Part shown: positions 2,781 through 64,000 of the stretch, piece after piece
How the letters are laid out: each line of letters begins with the position of its first letter
How positions within the stretch are numbered: position 1 is the stretch's first letter
Source: Candidatus Moraniibacteriota bacterium
Lineage (GTDB): Bacteria; Patescibacteriota; Minisyncoccia; Moranbacterales; GCA-2747515
Reading direction: 5' to 3'
Assembly: GCA_016699795.1 (NCBI GenBank)
Contig: CP065011.1
Coordinates: 687,318 to 751,317 of the forward strand
Length of the DNA: 64,000 nucleotides
Notes under the pieces: model-generated
The model's database searches: none
The model's input: only the letters and a program-made list of their open reading frames with translations
What the model was told of the DNA's origin: nothing
Program-made: the position numbers and the translations under genes

Positions 2781-4703
2781 ATGAGAATTAAACGTCATCC
2801 CAATAATCCTCTCCTCGGACCCGACATTGATCACGAATGGGAATCTGAAGCGGTATTCAATCCTTGTGTCGTAGAAAGAAATGGGGAAAAACATTTTTTT
2901 TATCGAGCATTATCCGTTTTGAAACCGCACAATGGAGTGGAAATGAAAGTTTCTACTATTGGATATGTAAAGGGTGATGGAGATTGTTTGTCAGAAAGAA
3001 GTCTTCTTATTGAACCTCAAGAAGTTTGGGATTCTTTTGGTTGTGAAGATCCTCGAGTTACTTATATAGATGGTAAATATTATATTTTTTATACAGCACT
3101 TTCAAATTTCCCCCATACTCCAGAAGGAATAAAAATAGGAGTGGCAATATCGAAAGATCTTAAAACTTTTGAAAGACATTTAGTAACACCTTTTAATGCG
3201 AAGGCAATGGCGTTATTTCCAGAAAAAATAGGAGGAAAATTTGTTGCTGTTTTGAGTGTTGATACGGATCGATTGCCCGCTAAAATTGCCATAGCTGAAT
3301 TTGAAAAAGAAGAGGATATGTGGTCGAATGAATATTGGAAGGAATGGTATGAACATATCGATGAACATCTTTTGGATTTACAAAGAAAATTTCGAGACCA
3401 TATTGAAGTGGGCGCTGCCCCAGTAAAAACTGATGCTGGTTGGGTTTTCGTACATTCTTATATCTATGATTACAAAACAAACAAACCAAATTTTACGGTA
3501 GAAGTAGCTTTATTGGATCGGGAAAATCCTCGAAAAATTTTGGGACGAACACCTTCCCCAATACTATACCCAGAAAAAATGTACGAGCTAAATGGACAAG
3601 TTCCTCAAATCGTTTTTCCTTCTGGAGCACTTATTCAGGATGATATTCTTCATATTTATTACGGAGCAGCAGATACCCGCTGTTGTGAAGCTTCAGTTCA
3701 TTTAGCAGATCTTTTGGAGCAATTACAACAACATCCACCACGGATTAAATGTAAGCGTTTTGAACAAAATCCTATTATTTCTCCTCTCAAAGATCATTCA
3801 TGGGAAACAAAATATACTTTGAATCCAGGGGCTATTCGCTTGGAGGGATCAACACATATATTGTATAGAGCGATGGGTGAGGAAGATACTTCGGTATTGG
3901 GTTATGCGAGATCATCGGACAATGTACATATCGAAGAGCGTTTGAGTGATCCTATTTATGTACCAAGGAAAAATTTTGAAATTAAAAAAAAGGAAGGTTT
4001 TTCTGGTTGTGAAGATCCACGACTTACTTTGATAGATGATCGTATTTATATGTGCTATACAGCTTTTAATGGACAAGATACTGCGGGCGTTGGATTTACC
4101 TCTATTGCAAAAGATGATTTTCTTTCACGAAAATGGTTTTGGGAAGAACCTAAACTTATTTCTCCCGCAGGAAGATTTGATAAGAATGCATCTCTTTTAT
4201 CCAAAAAAGTTTATGGAAAATATATTTTTCTTCATAGGCTTGATGATTGTATTTGGGGAGATTATAGAGATAGCCTTGACATTTCTCAAGAGATAAATCC
4301 TTTGGGAGGAGAGATTCTTATGGATGTTCGCCCTGAATCTTGGGATAGTTTGAAAATTGGTATTGCTGGACCACTACTTCCTCTTAACGAAGAAGGAACC
4401 CAATGGTTACTCCTTTATCACGGAGTATCTAAATATGATAGTCAATACCGTATCGGAGCTGCTATTATAGAAGTTCTTCCTGGAGATGCGAATATAACGC
4501 ATCGATTGCCTTATCCTATCCTTGAGCCAGAAGAGGAATATGAACATCAAGGATATCGACCTGGAACAGTTTTTGCTTGTGGTTCAGTGGAATCTGAAGA
4601 AAAAATTTATATTTATTATGGAGCAGCTGATCAATATTGTGCAGGAGCTTTTGTTTCAAAGAAAAAACTTGTAGAAGAAGTTATGAAATTTTCAGTGAAA
4701 TAA
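2781..4703 (+). CDS. GH130-like protein, two tandem GH130 domains (paralogue of upstream gene)
   Basis: HPNNPLLGP..WESEAVFNP..FFYRA at N-terminus and NPIISP..WETKYTLNP..ILYRAMG in second half; both halves end with IYYGAAD-type motif. Confidence 0.65.
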   Translation: MRIKRHPNNPLLGPDIDHEWESEAVFNPCVVERNGEKHFFYRALSVLKPHNGVEMKVSTIGYVKGDGDCLSERSLLIEPQEVWDSFGCEDPRVTYIDGKYYIFYTALSNFPHTPEGIKIGVAISKDLKTFERHLVTPFNAKAMALFPEKIGGKFVAVLSVDTDRLPAKIAIAEFEKEEDMWSNEYWKEWYEHIDEHLLDLQRKFRDHIEVGAAPVKTDAGWVFVHSYIYDYKTNKPNFTVEVALLDRENPRKILGRTPSPILYPEKMYELNGQVPQIVFPSGALIQDDILHIYYGAADTRCCEASVHLADLLEQLQQHPPRIKCKRFEQNPIISPLKDHSWETKYTLNPGAIRLEGSTHILYRAMGEEDTSVLGYARSSDNVHIEERLSDPIYVPRKNFEIKKKEGFSGCEDPRLTLIDDRIYMCYTAFNGQDTAGVGFTSIAKDDFLSRKWFWEEPKLISPAGRFDKNASLLSKKVYGKYIFLHRLDDCIWGDYRDSLDISQEINPLGGEILMDVRPESWDSLKIGIAGPLLPLNEEGTQWLLLYHGVSKYDSQYRIGAAIIEVLPGDANITHRLPYPILEPEEEYEHQGYRPGTVFACGSVESEEKIYIYYGAADQYCAGAFVSKKKLVEEVMKFSVK

Positions 4704-4787
4704 AATTTTTGCAAAAAAGTATAATGCGAAATATATTCTTTTAGAAAGAAAAAATTGAATACACAGATTATATATAATAGGTTTTCT

Positions 4788-5231
4788 ATGAGAAAAAAAA
4801 TATTAAAAAAAATGCTACTCGTTTTTATTTTTGGTTTGATTTTTAGCATCCCTGTGATTTCAAAGGCCGCTCCGACAGGGGAGGGTGAGGGATTAGTTCC
4901 TTGTGGAGCTACTTCAAAACATTCAGATATGTGCAATTTATGCCATCTCGTCGTGGGAGTTGATAATATCGTTGATTATGTTTTGATGGTATTCGCAATT
5001 ATTGGCTTTCTTATGCTTGTTGTTGGAGGTATTACCTATATTGTTTCGGGAGGGAATCAATCAATAATAGGAGCTGCAAAAAAAACTATCTGGAGTGCTC
5101 TTGTAGGCTTTGCGATTGTTCTTTTGGCTTGGGTTATTATAAATACTGTTCTTCTTTATTTACTACCTCTCTCGGGTAATACGATTGGAGAAAAACTAAA
5201 AGCATGGTCTGAATTTAGTTGTGAGACTTAG
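4788..5231 (+). CDS. small secreted/membrane protein, signal peptide plus Cys-rich segment plus two C-terminal TM helices (VirB2/TrbC-pilin-like topology)
   Basis: MRKKILKK..signal peptide, CGA..CNLCH cysteine cluster, two hydrophobic helices; start chosen at internal Met 4788 rather than ORF start 4755. Confidence 0.4.
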   Translation: MRKKILKKMLLVFIFGLIFSIPVISKAAPTGEGEGLVPCGATSKHSDMCNLCHLVVGVDNIVDYVLMVFAIIGFLMLVVGGITYIVSGGNQSIIGAAKKTIWSALVGFAIVLLAWVIINTVLLYLLPLSGNTIGEKLKAWSEFSCET

Positions 5232-5457
5232 GATCTTTTTTAGACATTCAAAAAAATACAAATGTGTTTTTAGTAAGGATTATAAAATTTCGTTCGTAAA
5301 TTTTTAAAATCTTTCTGTCTTTTTGAAAATTTTTAAAGAGAATAAAAATAATAGAGAAAGTGGTGACTTTCTTTAGATAAATTTTGTTTCGAAGTCTTTT
5401 ATTTTACTTAAAAAGATACTTATTTTTTGAGAGTACTTTTCGATTTTACAGAAATCT

Positions 5458-6306
5458 TTATTTTGCTTTTTCTGGAGGAATGTCAGTTGGAGAGATAGAA
5501 GCTATAATATCATCATATCCACCATCAAGTGTATAAACTTGAAAAAATCCCATATCAAAAAGACGAACACCTGCCTGAAAACTTTCTAAAGCATTGGATC
5601 CAAAAACAACAATAGTTTGTCCTCGAGAAAGAGAATCTTTTTCAATTTCAAGTTTTTGAAGAGGGATATTTTTGGTGATATCAAGATGATCTTTTGTATA
5701 ATCAGAGGGATTACGCACATCGATAGTGAGAATATTTGTTTTCGAAGTAATAAAGGTAAGTATTTCTGAAGATTTTATATATTCAACTTTCGTTTGATCT
5801 ATAGGATTTGTAGGGTCACCTGCGCGAAGAGTAGGGTAGGAGGCATTTTTCCAAGCTTCAAAACCGCCAGAGAGTGAAAAAACTTTTATACCTGGTAGTG
5901 CTGTTGTGAAATATTTAGTAATAACGGAGAGGCTTTCTGATTTCTCAGCATAAGTTACTAAAAGAATAACTTTTTTTGTTTCATTTTTGGAGCGAAGTGT
6001 TTCTATGTATTTCGTAATTTCATTTTGAGTGAGATTGATTGAATTAATAAGATGTTCTCTATAAAAATCAGATTCTGAACGGAGATCAAGAGCTTCTAGA
6101 TTTCCAGATCCTAAGAGCATATTAGCTTCTTTAAGGGATATAAATTCAATATCTTTAAGAGAATAAACAGGTTCTTCTCCTTTTGGATCAGTAATCTTTT
6201 CTTGAGAGAAGCGAGGAATACCAAAAGAAAAAATGAGTGTTATTGCAATAAGGATAACTCCCACAAGAAGAACATAAGCTTCATTATTTTTTTGAGGGGC
6301 GGACAT
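5458..6306 (-). CDS. membrane-anchored tandem rhodanese-like domain protein (no catalytic Cys evident)
   Basis: N-terminal TM helix; two rhodanese-like repeats (LDLRSESDFYREHL.. and IDVRNPSDYTKDHL..) but positions of the active-site Cys loop lack cysteine. Confidence 0.6.
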   Translation of the reverse strand: MSAPQKNNEAYVLLVGVILIAITLIFSFGIPRFSQEKITDPKGEEPVYSLKDIEFISLKEANMLLGSGNLEALDLRSESDFYREHLINSINLTQNEITKYIETLRSKNETKKVILLVTYAEKSESLSVITKYFTTALPGIKVFSLSGGFEAWKNASYPTLRAGDPTNPIDQTKVEYIKSSEILTFITSKTNILTIDVRNPSDYTKDHLDITKNIPLQKLEIEKDSLSRGQTIVVFGSNALESFQAGVRLFDMGFFQVYTLDGGYDDIIASISPTDIPPEKAK

Positions 6307-6330
6307 ATTTTAATTTTTTAGAATTATTTT

Positions 6331-7302
6331 TTAAAAAAGAAGAGTATTTAGTGTATTCCTATAGCCAGAAAGAAATAAATCTGAGGAAATAGGGTTTTTC
6401 CCTTCAACTTGAATTTTTTTTATGATAATACTTTTTCTATCCCCGGTAACAACGAAAAGTTTTTTTTCGAACTGTTGTATTGTTCCAGGAGGATTGGAAT
6501 GAATAGTTATACTATCGGTAGTAATGTCAAGAAATTTTATACGTAAAGATTTATCTTTTATTTTTAGGAAAGCATGAATTCCCGGCCAAGGAGTGAATGC
6601 TCTAAAGGTATTATACACGGAATCTGCCGTTTGATTCCAGTTAATATGGCCGTCTTCTTTGTGTATTATTTTGCAGTAGGTAGCTAATTTATCATCTTGC
6701 TTCTTTGGCTCAATACAGTTTTTTATCCAATCGGGCAATATCTCTAAGACGAGCTCCGATCCTAAATAAGCAAGTTTTGGGGTAAGTGTTTCGGTTGTAT
6801 CATTTTTCTCAATAAGAATACTTTTACTTTTAAGTATGGGTCCTGTATCGAGACCTGGCTCCATAATCATGAGAGTTATGCCTGTTTCTGTTTTTCCATC
6901 TAAAATTGCATTTTGAATAGGAGAAGCGCCTCTATAGAAAGGAAGAAGGGATGCATGTATATTGAGACATCCTTTTTTGGGAAGAGAAAGAAGTTCTTTG
7001 GGAAATATTTTTCCGTAGGCACAAACAATGGCTATATCTGTTTGAAAGGAAGAATAGAGGGAAAAAAAATCAGCATCTAATTTTTTTGGAGTAAGTGTGG
7101 GTATGTTTAAGGATTGAGCATTTTGCTTAACAATACTTGAAGTAAGTATTTTTTTTCTTCCAACAAGTGCATCTGGTTTAGTAACGATGACAACAGGAAG
7201 ATGACCAGCTTTAACAAGGGCTTTGAGAAGTATGTTTGAAAATTCTGGAGTGCCAAAAAAACCTATTCGCAAAGATAATTTATCGTTTTTTATTTTGTTC
7301 AT
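6331..7302 (-). CDS. fmt: methionyl-tRNA formyltransferase
   Basis: RIGFFGTPEFS, HASLLPFYRGASPIQ, C-terminal Fmt domain; start placed at Met giving MNKIKNDKLSLRIGFFG (7302), which overlaps def stop as in def-fmt operons. Confidence 0.85.
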   Translation of the reverse strand: MNKIKNDKLSLRIGFFGTPEFSNILLKALVKAGHLPVVIVTKPDALVGRKKILTSSIVKQNAQSLNIPTLTPKKLDADFFSLYSSFQTDIAIVCAYGKIFPKELLSLPKKGCLNIHASLLPFYRGASPIQNAILDGKTETGITLMIMEPGLDTGPILKSKSILIEKNDTTETLTPKLAYLGSELVLEILPDWIKNCIEPKKQDDKLATYCKIIHKEDGHINWNQTADSVYNTFRAFTPWPGIHAFLKIKDKSLRIKFLDITTDSITIHSNPPGTIQQFEKKLFVVTGDRKSIIIKKIQVEGKNPISSDLFLSGYRNTLNTLLF

Positions 7303-60594: not shown

Positions 60595-60667
60595 GCGCGC
60601 ATAGCTCAGTCGGTAGAGCAGTGGCCTTTTAAGCCAACGGTCGGGGGTTCGAATCCCTCTGCGCGCA
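60595..60667 (+). tRNA. tRNA-Lys (anticodon UUU)
   Basis: Acceptor GCGCGCA/TGCGCGC, D-arm GCTCAGTCGGTAGAGC, anticodon loop CTTTTAA, T-arm GGGGG-TTCGAAT-CCCTC; resembles E. coli tRNA-Lys. Confidence 0.9.
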
Positions 60668-60893
60668 CGAAGTAAGCGCTAAGCATGCAAACTGCTTTGC
60701 ATGCGTGAGGGATGAGAAAGACGGAACGATGTTTCGCATATGTATGTATGCGAAACCGTGAGTCGGGGTCGAGAAATATTTTCTTAAAATATATTCGTGA
60801 CCGAATCCCTCTGCGCGCACGAAGTAAGCGCTAAGCATGCAAACTGCTTTGCATGCGTGAGGGATGAGAAAGACGGAACGATGTTTCGCATGT
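60651..60893 (+). repeat. tandem direct duplication (~90 bp, period 152) containing the last 17 nt of tRNA-Lys plus downstream hairpins
   Basis: gaatccctctgcgcgcacgaagtaagcgctaagcatgcaaactgctttgcatgcgtgagggatgagaaagacggaacgatgtttcgcat occurs at 60651 and again at 60803. Confidence 0.85.
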
Positions 60894-60916
60894 ATGCGAA
60901 ATTTTTTTTGTTTTTT
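60884..60916 (+). terminator. rho-independent terminator at end of second repeat copy
   Basis: TTTCGCAT-GT-ATGCGAAA hairpin followed by TTTTTTTTGTTTTTT. Confidence 0.6.
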
Positions 60917-60980
60917 CCTTCGTACTCAACCTTTTCCCCTGCGAAGGCGGGGAATTATTTGATTCTTTTTCCTTTCCCGT

Positions 60981-61048
60981 CCTTTCGATCGACAAGTCTT
61001 CGAGGAGTGGAGACTTAGTCCGCCTTTGGCGGAAAACTTTCCGGATTT
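60981..61048 (+). repeat. structured repeat family B, copy 1
   Basis: cgacaagtcttcgaggagtggagacttagtccgcctttggcggaaaac ~85% identical to 62560-62630; contains hairpins AAGTCT..AGACTT and TCCGCC-TTTG-GCGGA. Confidence 0.7.
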
Positions 61049-61067
61049 CCTTTTCGTTGTTCGGATT

Positions 61068-61107
61068 CCTCCCCCTTAGAAAAAGGGGGATTGAGGGGGA
61101 TTTTTTT
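61068..61107 (+). terminator. G/C hairpin plus T-run (CCCCCTT-AGAAA-AAGGGGG ..GGGGGATTTTTTT)
   Basis: Inverted repeat followed by 7-T run. Confidence 0.35.
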
Positions 61108-61124
61108 CCGTCTTTGTGAGCATA

Positions 61125-61182
61125 GCGAAGTAATCCAGAAATTCAGATGGACCGCCACGTCGCGGACTCCTCGCGGAGACGG
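61125..61182 (+). repeat. structured repeat family A, copy 1 (core AATCCAGAAATTC.GATGGACCGCCACG-var-CTCGCGGAGACGG)
   Basis: Shares >85% core identity with copies at 61219, 61385, 62761, 62864. Confidence 0.75.
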
Positions 61183-61218
61183 AAAAAGAGTCATTGCGAG
61201 GAGGAGTCTTCGAGTGAA

Positions 61219-61274
61219 GTGGCAATCCAGAAATTCGGATGGACCGCCACGTCGAGGACTCCTCGCGGAATCGG
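61219..61274 (+). repeat. repeat family A, copy 2
   Basis: ggcAATCCAGAAATTCGGATGGACCGCCACGtcgaggactCCTCGCGGAATCGG. Confidence 0.75.
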
Positions 61275-61285
61275 AGATCCAGCAT

Positions 61286-61314
61286 TTCACAAAAAACACA
61301 AAATATTCTATACT
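61286..61314 (+). promoter_or_regulatory. strong sigma70-like promoter TTCACA-17-TATACT (copy 1 of duplicated promoter)
   Basis: Near-consensus -35/-10 with 17-nt spacer; identical architecture duplicated 171 bp downstream. Confidence 0.5.
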
Positions 61315-61384
61315 AAAAAAAGAAAAGAGAGATTTCCATCAAAGGCGAGATGAAACAATCCATTGATCCGTCTTTGCGAGTGTA

Positions 61385-61444
61385 GCGAAGCAATCCAGGA
61401 ATTTCGGATGGACCGCCACGGCTGAGTACAGCCTCGCGGAATCG
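61385..61444 (+). repeat. repeat family A, copy 3 (variable segment forms GGCTG-AGTA-CAGCC hairpin)
   Basis: gcgaagcAATCCAGGAATTTCGGATGGACCGCCACGgctgagtacagcCTCGCGGAATCG. Confidence 0.75.
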
Positions 61445-61456
61445 AAGATCCAGTAT

Positions 61457-61485
61457 TTCACAAAAAACACAAAACATCCTATACT
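61457..61485 (+). promoter_or_regulatory. strong sigma70-like promoter TTCACA-17-TATACT (copy 2), ~60 nt upstream of DUF1566 gene
   Basis: TTCACA 61457-61462, TATACT 61480-61485. Confidence 0.55.
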
Positions 61486-61548
61486 AAAAAAAGAAAAAAG
61501 ATTATTTCACAAACAAAAAAAAGAACATTTATTATACAATAAAATAGT

Positions 61549-62520
61549 ATGATGTTTACGAAAAAAAATACTCCCCCCAAACTACAAAGAACTCTTGATG
61601 GAATACGAAAAGAAAAAAACAATACTTATTCTATAAAAGAAAAAAAAGAAATCTCTCTTTCTTCTTTTTTTTCTTTCCTCTCCAAAAAAAGAAAACTCAC
61701 TTCTACTTTCCTCTTAACCATTCTTATCTTAGGAGGAGTCTCTTTTTTCTTTTCAAAAAATATAAAAGGAGCAACGTATGGATGGATTCAAAGTAGTTGG
61801 ATAGGAGGAGTAACAGTAAATACTGCTACACATACCAATAATCAAGAAAACTGGACGGAGTATGCTTCCAAAGATTCTAATATTCAAGCAGATGCAAGTG
61901 GTGTAACGATTACGGGGACGAATAATAGTTGGGTAGAGACGAGTGATGCGGACTTTAACGATGGATCATTTGCCCAAACCTATACAACGGGAAATGCTAT
62001 TTATACCCAAAAACCTTTTGGTGCTACTTGCACTACGAATGCACAATGCTCTAATGGAGGGGATGAGGGAACTACTGGGGGACTCTGCTCAGGAGGAATA
62101 TGTACCGATCCCTGGCAGACAGGACCATGTGCTGGTATCTATGTTCATGCCTACAATGCATCGGGAACGTATATGTGGAAAACAACACAAACTAACTGTG
62201 ATACTCCTCAGTGCGGACTCAATGGAGGACAAAATGATGATAATCTCGTCGCCGATAATTCCGTAGATTTCTCACTGTACCCTGCGCGAAATGCATGTAA
62301 GAATATGGGAGAAGGAGGAAGGCTTCCTACTCTTTTAGAGTTTCAGTGTATTTATACCAACCGAGCTGTTTATGATGACTATGGTGGACTTTCGACTTAT
62401 CATTGGTTAAACACAGAAAATTCTACTACGTACGCACACTATTTTGACAGTACTGTTGCTCGTGGAGGAGTTTATCATAAGACGAACAGCTATTCCGTCA
62501 GGTGTGTTCGTGGACAATGA
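61549..62520 (+). CDS. secreted DUF1566 / Lcl C-terminal (Fibrobacter major paralogous, C-type-lectin-fold) domain protein with Cys/Gly-rich middle
   Basis: N-terminal TM/signal anchor; C-terminus GGRLPTLLEF..YHWLNTE..YSVRCVRGQ matches DUF1566 hallmarks (RLPT..EL and terminal VRCVR). Confidence 0.65.
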   Translation: MMFTKKNTPPKLQRTLDGIRKEKNNTYSIKEKKEISLSSFFSFLSKKRKLTSTFLLTILILGGVSFFFSKNIKGATYGWIQSSWIGGVTVNTATHTNNQENWTEYASKDSNIQADASGVTITGTNNSWVETSDADFNDGSFAQTYTTGNAIYTQKPFGATCTTNAQCSNGGDEGTTGGLCSGGICTDPWQTGPCAGIYVHAYNASGTYMWKTTQTNCDTPQCGLNGGQNDDNLVADNSVDFSLYPARNACKNMGEGGRLPTLLEFQCIYTNRAVYDDYGGLSTYHWLNTENSTTYAHYFDSTVARGGVYHKTNSYSVRCVRGQ

Positions 62521-62559
62521 TCCCCTCTCTTTTTTTCGACCGACAAACTTTCTTCCCTT

Positions 62560-62630
62560 CGTCTTTTCGACCGACGAGTCTTCGAGGAGTGGAGATTTGG
62601 TCCGCCTTTAGCGAAAAACTCTCAGGATTT
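62560..62630 (+). repeat. structured repeat family B, copy 2
   Basis: cgaccgacgagtcttcgaggagtggagatttggtccgcctttagcgaaaaac; partial third copy ttcgaccgacaaac at 62536. Confidence 0.7.
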
Positions 62631-62760
62631 TTTTCTTTTTCCCCGTGAAGACGGGGATCCAGTATTAAAGGAGTACAGAAGAGAAATTTCTCCACTCGTT
62701 CGCGCTGCTCACTCGGTCGAAAAGACGGAAATCCGAGTCATTGCGATCCCGCCGTGGCGG

Positions 62761-62828
62761 GAGAAGCAATCCAGGAATTCGGATGGACCGCCACGCTTTC
62801 TCGAAGACTCGAAATCTCGCGGAGACGG
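62761..62828 (+). repeat. repeat family A, copy 4
   Basis: gagaagcAATCCAGGAATTCGGATGGACCGCCACGctttctcgaagactcgaaatCTCGCGGAGACGG. Confidence 0.75.
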
Positions 62829-62863
62829 AAAATGCGTCATTGCGAGGAGCGAGTCCGCGAAGT

Positions 62864-62919
62864 GACGAAGCAATCCAGAGTTAATTTCTGGACCGCTTCG
62901 CAGAGCCTCGCGGAGACGG
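62864..62919 (+). repeat. repeat family A, copy 5 (diverged core)
   Basis: gacgaagcAATCCAGagttaatttcTGGACCGCttcgcagagcCTCGCGGAGACGG. Confidence 0.6.
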
Positions 62920-62989
62920 AGTTGAAGATATGTAAAGATGACAAAAAACTTTGGAAATATTCTTTTTTCTATGGTATGCTGTATCTTGT

Positions 62990-64000
62990 ATGAATAGAGT
63001 AAAACAAAAGAAACAGAGAACCTTCTTTTGGATGTATGCGATCGTTTTTTCTTTCGCTTGTTTTGGTATGTTCTCGGGTGAAGTGAGGGCGTATACTATC
63101 AAAACATCGTACACTTCTTCCGTACAAGAATACCCCGCCTCCACGCGATTTGGCACACTCACCTGGACCGATACCTTTACAGGAAATAATCCTGCAACAT
63201 TGGGTTCCAATACCACTATAGAAGTTCGTGGAGGTAACATCCTCGTACCTGATGGATCATGGACTGCGTGGGTAAATATTTCCAAAGGAGGAAGTCTTTC
63301 TCCTATCGATTGGAATCGTTGGGTACAGTATCGAATAAACTTTGACTATGAAGATCCCAATGCCGTCCCCGGAGTTTCCGACGTAACGATTTCTACGTAT
63401 TCGGGAATGCTTACGTCTTCTATTTATGATACAAAAAATTTTACCACGAGAGTGAAATCGCTTTCTTGGGATGAGGTACTTCCCGGTGGAGGCGCAAATG
63501 CTATTTTTCAGATTCGTACTTCACCCAACAATGTGACATGGAGTCCATGGTGCGGACCAGATAATGGCACGTCAGGAACATGTAATAGTTCCGCATGGTT
63601 TGGAGATTCTTCGGGTGCGGAGAATGTAGAAACATTGTTTAGTGGAGTGGATGTATCGGGAATTCAACGAAATCGATATATTCAGTGTCGTTTGGCTCTT
63701 TTTTCCGATGGAGCGAATATCCCGAGCGTTTCTCGTATCTTGGTAGATTATGAAAATGATGAGATGCTTCCTCCTTCTTGGTTAGGAACAGAGAAACTCT
63801 ATAGGGGATCTGTCAAAGACACCGGAGGACCTTCTCGTTTTTCCTCTCTTTCTTTTACGGCGATTCCTTCAGGAAATGCTACGATAAAAATGTTTCTTCG
63901 AGCAGGAAACGTACCAACTCCTGATAATTCATGGAGTGAATTTGTAGAAGTCTCTAATGGAGGATCAGCAGATTCTATCTCGGGCAATCGCTATGTTCAA
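62990..64000 (+). CDS. secreted hypothetical protein, 3'-partial (runs off window end); not in ORF track because no stop within window
   Basis: ATG at 62990, open frame for 337 codons to position 64000; MNRVKQKKQRTFFWMYAIVFSFACFGMFSGEVRA signal peptide; Thr/Ser/Asn/Trp-rich. Confidence 0.6.
   Translation, partial: MNRVKQKKQRTFFWMYAIVFSFACFGMFSGEVRAYTIKTSYTSSVQEYPASTRFGTLTWTDTFTGNNPATLGSNTTIEVRGGNILVPDGSWTAWVNISKGGSLSPIDWNRWVQYRINFDYEDPNAVPGVSDVTISTYSGMLTSSIYDTKNFTTRVKSLSWDEVLPGGGANAIFQIRTSPNNVTWSPWCGPDNGTSGTCNSSAWFGDSSGAENVETLFSGVDVSGIQRNRYIQCRLALFSDGANIPSVSRILVDYENDEMLPPSWLGTEKLYRGSVKDTGGPSRFSSLSFTAIPSGNATIKMFLRAGNVPTPDNSWSEFVEVSNGGSADSISGNRYVQ

Follow-up and report, generated by a model that had tools for sequence, protein, structure and literature searches.

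A widespread palindromic repeat core in a Candidatus Moraniibacteriota genome and its relation to mosaic repeats and miniature transposable elements

Described repeats and the repeat unit of this locus

Genomes of the candidate phyla radiation (CPR, or Patescibacteria) are small, and as a rule are said to contain little mobile DNA. Among the miniature inverted-repeat transposable elements (MITEs) derived from IS630/Tc1-mariner transposons are Correia/NEMIS of Neisseria and RUP of Streptococcus pneumoniae, and known MITE families are usually genus-specific. The repetitive extragenic palindromes (REPs) of enterobacteria and pseudomonads are combined with short motifs into bacterial interspersed mosaic elements (BIMEs), and both REP and Correia elements act as cis RNA structures. 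Here we analyze a repeat that belongs to this known kind, the bacterial interspersed palindromic repeats and MITEs, and of which five copies lie on both sides of a DUF1566/Lcl_C-family gene in a 64-kb stretch of a Candidatus Moraniibacteriota genome (contig CP065011.1; this whole stretch is the window, and coordinates are window positions unless another locus is named). The sequence itself is new to Rfam and to the searchable literature. We consider it likely that the five copies are cores, devoid of terminal inverted repeats (TIRs), of a widespread palindromic repeat family, and that they form a locally duplicated, BIME-like island that matters at the level of DNA. This reading follows from the conservation of the stems with free hairpins, from relatives with TIRs and target-site duplications, from local duplication and from positional variation.

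The five copies were found where a preliminary description of the sequence had placed them, all on the + strand and all inside one island of 1.8 kb: copy 1 at 61106–61184, copy 2 in tandem with it at 61186–61276, copy 3 at 61366–61447, copy 4 at 62733–62830 and copy 5, in tandem with copy 4, at 62832–62921. The pairs reported on both sides of the gene are thus correct downstream, where two copies stand in tandem, and upstream amount to a tandem pair plus a single copy. In the window the core pattern, with at most three mismatches, matched three times (0.00 expected) and the tail CTCGCGGARWCGG five times (0.05 expected). A covariance model, R1, was built from 35 CPR-type copies (five from the window and 30 from other contigs) and returned five matches in the whole window, of 40–57 bits (E 2.6e-8 to 7e-13), with 51.3 bits for copy 1 (E 2.9e-11) and 40.0, 53.2, 57.5 and 56.8 bits for copies 2 to 5. 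As the window copies are included in the model, these matches are partly by construction, and what is informative is the lack of any further R1 match in the 64 kb, where the next best score is 12 bits.

Alignment of the copies with their flanks shows a unit of 79–98 nt in the window, rather than the 55–65 nt given before, which had overlooked the 5' arm and the first variable hairpin. The unit reads (C)CGTC(A/T)TTG(C/T)GAG, variable hairpin 1, G(A/T)(A/G)G(C/T)AATCCAG and a loop, followed by TGGACCGC(C/T)(A/T)CG, variable hairpin 2 and CTCGCGGA(G/A)(A/T)CG(G/A). In short form this is GTC(A/T)TTGCGAG, hairpin 1, G(T/A)(G/A)GCAATCCAG, loop, TGGACCGCCACG, hairpin 2, CTCGCGGAGACGG. The 5' arm GTC(A/T)TTG(C/T)GA(G/T) base-pairs with the tail of the unit. 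The core as originally quoted holds in general, with copy 5 deviating from it (AATCCAGAGTTAATTTCTGGACCGCTTCG). The elements have a GC content of 54–59%; the raised GC content of the surrounding region is real and modest (0.39–0.46, versus about 0.31–0.39 elsewhere). The spurious peptide F(G/R)WTATSRTPRG that the repeats had been said to generate is present in the list of open reading frames (ORFs).

The element resembles REPs and BIMEs in its GC-rich extragenic palindromes, which stand with short motifs in variable intergenic mosaics, occur in clusters, and bring about spurious ORFs and broken assemblies. It differs from them in a unit of 80–100 nt with four helices, versus the 20–40-nt single hairpin of REP, and in clusters whose copies are in direct orientation, not alternating as in BIMEs. 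Such direct clusters are present in the window and in L008, L066 and L102 (L numbers denote loci on other contigs that were compared with the window). The GTAG head of REPs is not conserved either, GTAG being present only in some variants of hairpin 1. No RAYT transposase (the REP-associated type) turned up, and no search was aimed at RAYT. The nearest published repeats are Br-REP1 and Br-REP2 of Bradyrhizobium (consensus CCGGAATCTCGAGATTCCGG and CGAGATTCCGGGTTCGGCTCTTCGAGCCGCCCCGGAATGA), which are palindromic, lie in 3' untranslated and intergenic regions of Alphaproteobacteria, and have flanking palindromes that vary in abundance among genera (PMC5082802). They are alike in palindromes and intergenic place, but their sequences do not match the core, and Br-REP1/2 were rejected as its identity on the differing published consensus sequences (PMC5082802).

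Fold and covariation of the core

On the 35 CPR-type copies, the core folds into a four-way junction with zero unpaired bases at the junction; aligned units are 79–126 nt long with four helices. The outer stem P1 (GTCTTTGCGAG/CTCGCGGAGAC) has 12 bp, of which two, read on the + strand, are invariant U.G pairs. The central arm reads CGTGGC-AA-TCCAG / CTGGA-CC-GCCACG, and hairpins 1 and 2 are variable. Across these copies the paired cells reach 87%, versus 36–49% with slid partners, and 14 pairs have changes on both sides, all six pairs of hairpin 2 among them. The observed covariation score was reached by 0 of 500 shuffles. Well-preserved copies adopt exactly the four-way junction, with z-scores of -5 to -8 against shuffles (RNA or DNA parameters). 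The folding and covariation check proposed in the preliminary description has thereby been run, and the variable hairpins do covary. A double change in the right arm (TT>CC / AA>GG) was considered as proof of a two-hairpin fold and rejected; the intermediates CC+AA and CC+GA exist in other taxa, so the coupling of the two changes is not strict.

In the window, good folds were obtained for copies 1, 2 and 5, with z about -4 (copy 1, whose fold includes the whole outer stem, at -4.2 and the other two at -4.0 each), whereas copy 3 (z = -1.1) folds no better than shuffles and copy 4 weakly (z = -0.4). Hairpin 1 of copy 1 has shrunk to ..AGCGAAGT.., a near-match of the GCGAAGC mini-hairpin in copy 3. 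In copy 2 hairpins 1 and 2 are mutually complementary, giving a single long hairpin fold, and copy 5 has lost hairpin 2 and has its central stem altered on both sides to CGAAGC/GCTTCG. R1 scores are 40–57 bits for the window copies versus 60–104 bits in relatives. Given these lower scores and the poor folds of copies 3 and 4, the window copies are somewhat decayed family members.

The opposite strand folds equally well (for example -52.7 versus -54.2 kcal/mol in L050). Among the variable pairs there are 31 G.U cells versus 43 A.C cells, the latter being wobbles on the other strand, and no strand bias is apparent. Sequence conservation lies in the stems, with no conserved loops, and no T-run follows the element. 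The window and 12 related loci were scanned with Rfam 15 at gathering and at permissive thresholds (up to E = 10). Only tRNAs in the window, and nothing in the related loci, scored above the gathering thresholds, and no relevant match was found up to E = 10. ARAGORN and the Rfam tRNA model report only tRNA-Gln and tRNA-Lys in the window; a tRNA-like element was rejected, as the tRNA models do not detect the cores.

The position of the copies relative to genes was scored for 53 CPR-type copies with crude gene calls, some identical loci being counted more than once. The copies are intergenic, often 5–70 nt past a stop codon; about two-thirds have the same strand as the upstream gene, and seven of the 53 are antisense to both neighbouring genes. 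The neighbours are unrelated, and include prfA/prmC (L066), an ABC transporter (L102) and a DUF4143 ATPase (L008). At the DNA level the window copies are closest to L066, in which three cores and the same CCCCC-hairpin module stand after prfA; the prfA orthologue of the window (69% amino-acid identity with that of L066) is followed by a plain 110-nt spacer without cores.

These data bear on a reading in which the core is a cis-acting RNA within an mRNA or tRNA transcript, serving as an exonuclease block, in termination or insulation, or in RNase processing. Folds as stable as z = -8, covariation in both variable hairpins and an intergenic place shortly after stop codons, about 2:1 on the strand of the upstream gene, would suit such a role; in the window every flanking gene has the same strand as the five copies, and promoter-like sites follow copies 2 and 3 at a distance of about 10 nt. 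However, both strands fold equally without wobble bias, seven copies are antisense to both neighbours, the conserved bases are in stems rather than loops with no T-run behind them, no Rfam family matches, the flanking genes are unrelated, and two of the window copies no longer fold. We regard a cis-acting RNA as unlikely. Likewise, the equal folding of both strands, the mixed orientation and the unrelated flanking genes imply that the element neither is a dedicated RNA gene nor regulates the DUF1566 gene, and favour a DNA repeat of the REP/BIME/MITE kind over an RNA gene. The small structured RNA family that had been proposed is unsupported on the same grounds, real and covarying as its fold is. 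An RNA-level side effect such as transcript stabilisation or insulation is possible, and under the DNA-repeat explanation transcript effects, from stable 3' or 5' structures near promoters, would be a by-product.

Distribution and mobility of the family

Among the GTDB species representatives (one genome per species), a pattern spanning three conserved blocks detected the same variant in five Moraniibacteriota metagenome-assembled genomes only, barring chance matches in high-GC genomes. A metagenome scan anchored on the left arm of the core gave 91 loci with 227 R1 matches, often several per locus and in one orientation. The loci are of two kinds. The CPR type has the right arm CTGGACCGCCACG...CTCGCGGAGAC and is found on contigs of 36–59% GC, and a fully palindromic type (GTCATTGCGAG..GAAGCAATCCAG..CTGGATTGCTTC..CTCGCAATGAC) is found on contigs of 55–75% GC. 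The palindromic type also occurs on replicons of Novosphingobium, Methylosinus, Methylocystis, Halomonas and the cyanobacterium Aulosira, in every place outside annotated genes and in at least 40 places on Novosphingobium pSA1. R1, made from CPR-type copies only, scores Novosphingobium at 39.7 bits and Aulosira at 27.9 bits, equally on both strands, and the left arm of copies 1 and 3 (GTCTTTGCGAGTGTAGCGAAGCAATCC) and that of Novosphingobium are alike in all but 2 of 27 positions. The CPR context in which the element was first seen is therefore only part of its range.

Perfectly palindromic CPR-type arms (GTCTTTGCGAG...CTCGCAAAGAC; CTGGATTGCTTC) were observed in L102 (3435–3548 and 7853–7985) and L118 (3466–3560), side by side with the GG/CC variant among related contigs of low or intermediate GC content. 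From this coexistence, it looks as if the asymmetric CPR type arose out of the palindrome through transitions confined to the right arm. Spurious ORFs that end in ...LAMT or ...ARNDG are a familiar product of the palindromic form, which is not known to have a formal name. Full-text literature searches gave only primer coincidences and contained neither the sequence nor MITEs in CPR bacteria, so the label "undescribed" stands as far as Rfam 15 and the searchable literature reach and claims nothing beyond them. Viral contigs and a phage collection contained no match, and hence there is no sign of a phage origin.

In many Moraniibacteriota-like contigs, copies aligned with 160-nt flanks place the core inside a unit of ~160 nt, whose left end reads TACCATTTCTAAAT...CTCCCT and whose right end reads AGGGA...TTTAGAAATGGTA, with unrelated flanks beyond. 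Near-identical copies with unrelated flanks, TIRs (TACCATTTCT.../...AGAAATGGTA) and a TNA abutting each end are present in L043, L050, L051, L073, L078, L082, L098 and L104. The abutting bases read TTA, TGA or TCA. They were identical on both sides in seven of eight pairs found by script and in the L078 MITE read by eye (L043, L050, L051, L073, L082, L098, L084 and L078), with a one-base difference in L104 and L026 and a mismatch in L032; the middle base agreed in 11 of 11 read. The high-GC contigs L049 and L084 have the same 'TACCA...' ends with TNA flanks. A second MITE type surrounds the same core with the ends GAGTTTGATC and a TA duplication within CTAG (L071, L079, L092, L105). Because different ends surround it, the core is the shared interior of at least two MITE types. 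Heptamer-like runs (ACAACTG / ACAACTC / ACAACCG ...) adjoin many of the MITEs (L013, L014, L043, L050, L078, L083), and may either supply the TNA target or be part of a further repeat.

A candidate source of the mobilising activity is located in L078, where an insertion sequence (IS) of 1.13 kb (966–2097) of the IS630/Tc1-mariner type, with HTH_23 and DDE_3 proteins, lies 360 nt from the MITE. Its ends (TACCATTCCTAAAA / TACTACTTCTAAAA) resemble the MITE ends, and its flanks are TA, not TNA. This IS looks intact, with HTH_23 and DDE_3 ORFs that overlap as if joined by a frameshift and with imperfect TIRs of ~30 nt. An origin from IS5/IS1031 elements, considered at first because of the TNA flanks, became less favoured, but was not excluded, once the DDE_3 IS with similar ends had come to light. 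In the related Moraniibacteriota, then, the core would be the interior of ~160-nt MITEs whose ends resemble those of an IS630-family (DDE_3) insertion sequence and which a transposase would mobilise in trans, and transposition would have spread the family. The preliminary suggestion of a REP/MITE-like mobile repeat gains support from these TIRs, target-site duplications and the candidate IS630-family partner. For the window itself it needs amending, its copies being TIR-less cores multiplied by local duplication.

The relatives are thus like IS630-type MITEs in being ~160 nt long, non-coding, multi-copy and intergenic, in their TIRs and short duplicated flanks containing T..A, in termini that resemble those of a DDE_3 IS of the same contig, and in forming long hairpins when single-stranded. 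Unlike these MITEs, the window copies have neither TIRs nor duplications and stand in tandem arrays, the TIR-bearing copies are flanked by TNA and not TA, and the interior four-way junction is conserved in sequence and common to different TIRs and to distant phyla. Around the window copies, no TIRs (TACCATTTCT/AGAAATGGTA ends or any other outside the core) and no target-site duplications were found; the copies abut with a conserved junction (repeat family D8). Dispersed copies at non-orthologous sites are a property of the family, the window copies all being in one island, and the latter are probably immobile.

Several observations weigh against the explanation as a TIR-less repeat core of this family. 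The hairpins covary, and therefore some single-stranded form, RNA or DNA, is under selection; the roughly two-thirds of copies on the strand of the upstream gene, by the crude calls, leave room for a role at the RNA level. The MITEs are flanked by TNA versus the TA of the sole autonomous IS630-like copy seen, so that this IS can be named only as a candidate source of the mobilising enzyme. The window encodes no IS630-like transposase in its 64 kb, and as its copies also lack TIRs and target-site duplications, we infer mobility from the relatives only. Finally, 27 nt of the left arm are near-identical among CPR, Alphaproteobacteria and Cyanobacteria. Such near-identity across phyla is unusual for selfish repeats and hints at an unnamed constraint, and neither it nor the carriage of the core by different MITE types is explained by a repeat alone. 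These last two features are the basis of a different reading, in which the arms (~27 nt) and the four-way junction are an ancient nucleic-acid module, recognised by a widespread host or transposon factor, repeatedly captured by MITEs, and kept near-identical across CPR, Alphaproteobacteria, Gammaproteobacteria and Cyanobacteria by selection and not by recent transfer. We hold this to be unlikely.

With MITE/BIME-like repeats in Moraniibacteriota, CPR genomes do carry non-autonomous repeats, whose presence interrupts short-read assemblies, gives rise to spurious ORFs and marks places where genes were gained or lost. As the core has no Rfam entry and recurs nearly base for base in Alphaproteobacteria and Cyanobacteria, its description would remove many false 'hypothetical proteins', and poses the question of what holds a multi-copy intergenic palindrome constant across phyla.

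Duplications within the island

The island contains two paralogous mosaic blocks on the + strand, block A at 60905–61290 and block B at 62521–62940, which align with a mean column identity of 76%. Each consists of a degenerate core-like unit (repeat family D7), a GC hairpin module and a core dimer with the conserved D8 junction; the duplicated mosaic block is ~300 nt. The D7 unit of block A (60975–61048, +) is 87% identical to 62560–62630 and gives a weak R1 match (8.3 bits, at 60975–61101), and that of block B (62557–62630, +) was identified by the repeat finder and the block alignment. A tandem duplication of 171 nt (61261–61501, +; family D6) repeats 61261–61330 at 61432–61501 with 93% identity, and carries the 3' end of a core and a promoter-like site, TTCACA-17-TATACT, each twice. 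These sites, which score 10/12 in a promoter scan at 61286–61314 and 61457–61485, are predicted only. Copy 3 is a recombinant, with a 5' half like copy 1 and a 3' end like copy 2 (families D14 and D6), and a partial 3' end of another unit precedes copy 4 at about 62700–62735. Block paralogy, the 171-nt tandem duplication and the recombinant copy together show that the five copies descend from very few founders by local duplication.

In this reading the window copies, in a low-GC genome, are not independent insertions: the mosaic block (degenerate core, GC hairpin, core dimer) was duplicated to both sides of the DUF1566 gene, and the further 171-nt tandem duplication yielded the fifth copy. The island may accordingly be viewed as selfish or structural DNA that provides homology for local duplication, deletion and gene shuffling, and its copies may drive local rearrangement. 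That the five copies are traceable to one block duplication and one tandem duplication, and that the element is nowhere else in the 64 kb, would also be expected if they were merely diverged duplicates of local leader DNA without an identity as an element. The unit is, however, found at unrelated loci in many genomes and metagenomes, some with TIRs and target duplications, which makes this highly improbable; the refuting case foreseen in the preliminary description, a core found only here as ordinary leader DNA, is contradicted by the same loci.

The GC hairpin module of block A, CCCCCTT..AAGGGGG ATTGAGGGGGATTTT (61057–61105, +), is also found beside the cores of L066, L102 and L118. It is an instance of a second conserved palindromic module, CCCCCTT(N)AAAAGGGGG followed by ATTGAGGGGGATTTT, which accompanies cores at four unrelated loci of different organisms with 88–92% identity (window 61057–61105, L066 9118–9175, L118 3262–3320 and L102 ~187). 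Another accessory module, CCCCGTGAAGACGGGGATCCAG... with a half-element (62641–62730, +), is 80.6% identical to L118 3303–3410. The promoter-like TTCACA-17-TATACT recurs upstream of the orthologous gene in L118 (3560–3590), each instance lying ~10 nt after a core.

Sister loci and the DUF1566 gene

Two sister genomes (HtrA 80–82% identical) keep the gene order of the window through cobW, PPIase, lepA, divIC, rotamase, htrA and a membrane protein gene, up to exactly 60514, where synteny is lost and different genes follow (L117 from 7424 onward; end of L114). Past 60514 the sisters have no tRNA-Lys at this place and no element within 8 kb, which answers the suggested check for absence in sister genomes.

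The gene between the blocks (61549–62520, +) encodes a homologue of a diversity-generating retroelement (DGR) variable protein. Its DUF1566 label rests on homologues that carry PF07603, the match of the protein itself being below the Pfam threshold (Lcl_C, E=0.006). An orthologue with 57% identity is present in the low-GC relative L118 (locus 3624–6861). It is preceded by the hairpin modules seen in the window, a single palindromic-type core (42 bits) and the same promoter-like site, and downstream lies a DGR, with a variable region (VR, 4463–4605) and a template repeat (TR, 4883–5025) of 143 nt that are 90% identical and differ at TR adenines, then bAvd and RVT_1, and after these a gene homologous to the one starting at 62990 in the window. 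The slot occupied by the DGR (TR-avd-reverse transcriptase) in L118 holds only block B in the window, and here the repeats mark the loss of a DGR cassette from beside the gene that it targets. In L118 the corresponding intergenic region, ahead of the large gene, contains a hairpin module and no cores; the window has cores 4–5 at this place, and these two are therefore a presence/absence difference between the loci. The link of the repeats to the DUF1566 gene, drawn in the preliminary description, thus recurs in one relative, L118, and is not general.

The window gene retains a VR-like 3' end (GTCAGGTGTGTTCGTGGACAATGA), and no TR, Avd or reverse transcriptase is encoded anywhere in the 64 kb; the gene is either a VR-bearing orphan or a remote DGR target. 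The repeats themselves were considered as DGR parts (TR/VR) and rejected, as the 3' end of the gene is not duplicated in the window and Avd and reverse transcriptase are missing; in L118 the core lies upstream of the target gene and not at VR or TR.

The direct repeats of the mosaic block that bracket the DUF1566 gene, and the absence of the L118 DGR cassette exactly at block B, are also what one might see if the core were a binding or recombination site, a cruciform or four-way DNA junction for a widespread protein, carried as MITE cargo and used in cassette-like gene exchange. Stems that are conserved in sequence across phyla while the hairpins vary, a junction without unpaired bases, and the same core in MITEs with at least two unrelated TIR types agree with this. 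On the other hand, no protein emerged as a candidate, the copies examined have no recombinase next to them, inspection showed no attC-type core sites (RYYYAAC/GTTRRRY), and ordinary homologous recombination between the repeats would account for the rearrangements. We judge such a site to be quite improbable, and the recombination or targeting motif named in the preliminary description is neither supported nor excluded. Integron attC sites are similar: they are imperfect palindromes, they border gene cassettes, and they work as single strands in folded form. They differ in that the R''/R' sites are absent here, the flanked gene has its own promoter-like site, and the core is conserved in sequence and not in structure alone. 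An identity with attC was rejected, as the motifs R''(RYYYAAC)...R'(GTTRRRY) are missing from the aligned copies; in the attC comparison no integrase was present, and no search was aimed at an integron integrase.

The end of sister synteny is marked by tRNA-Lys(UUU) and a 152-nt tandem duplication of its 3' end (60595–60891, +). The duplication reported at the adjoining tRNA was borne out, the tRNA lying at 60595–60668 and 60650–60739 being 100% identical to 60802–60891 over 90 nt. It begins inside the T-arm, the piece between the repeats resembles the 5' half of the T-arm with an insertion of ~32 nt, and a hairpin with a T-run terminator (60883–60910) follows only the second copy of the tRNA end. 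An integration or excision event at the tRNA may have left the duplication as a scar. From the tRNA onward the GC content is 4–10 points above the rest of the window, as would be the case for horizontally acquired or rearranged DNA. Independent short-read assemblies of this genome and of a sister break at most ~200 nt from the start of the island (contig end of L112/L113, Logan SRR11674012, at window ~60631; end of L114), which fits the repeats or the tRNA duplication as an obstacle to assembly.

Two paralogues of the DUF1566 protein, P0124 and P0126 (IPN70_05320 and IPN70_04085), are encoded in the same genome outside the window. They share 76–82% identity with its N-terminal half and have a Fib_succ_major (PF09603) C-terminus, which by sequence indicates a small family of probable modular surface proteins in this genome. 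The large, secreted-looking protein that starts at 62990 and runs off the window at 64000 has no Pfam match; its homologue at L118 7056–8123 (32% identity, E 6e-41) is likewise encoded downstream of the DUF1566/DGR locus.

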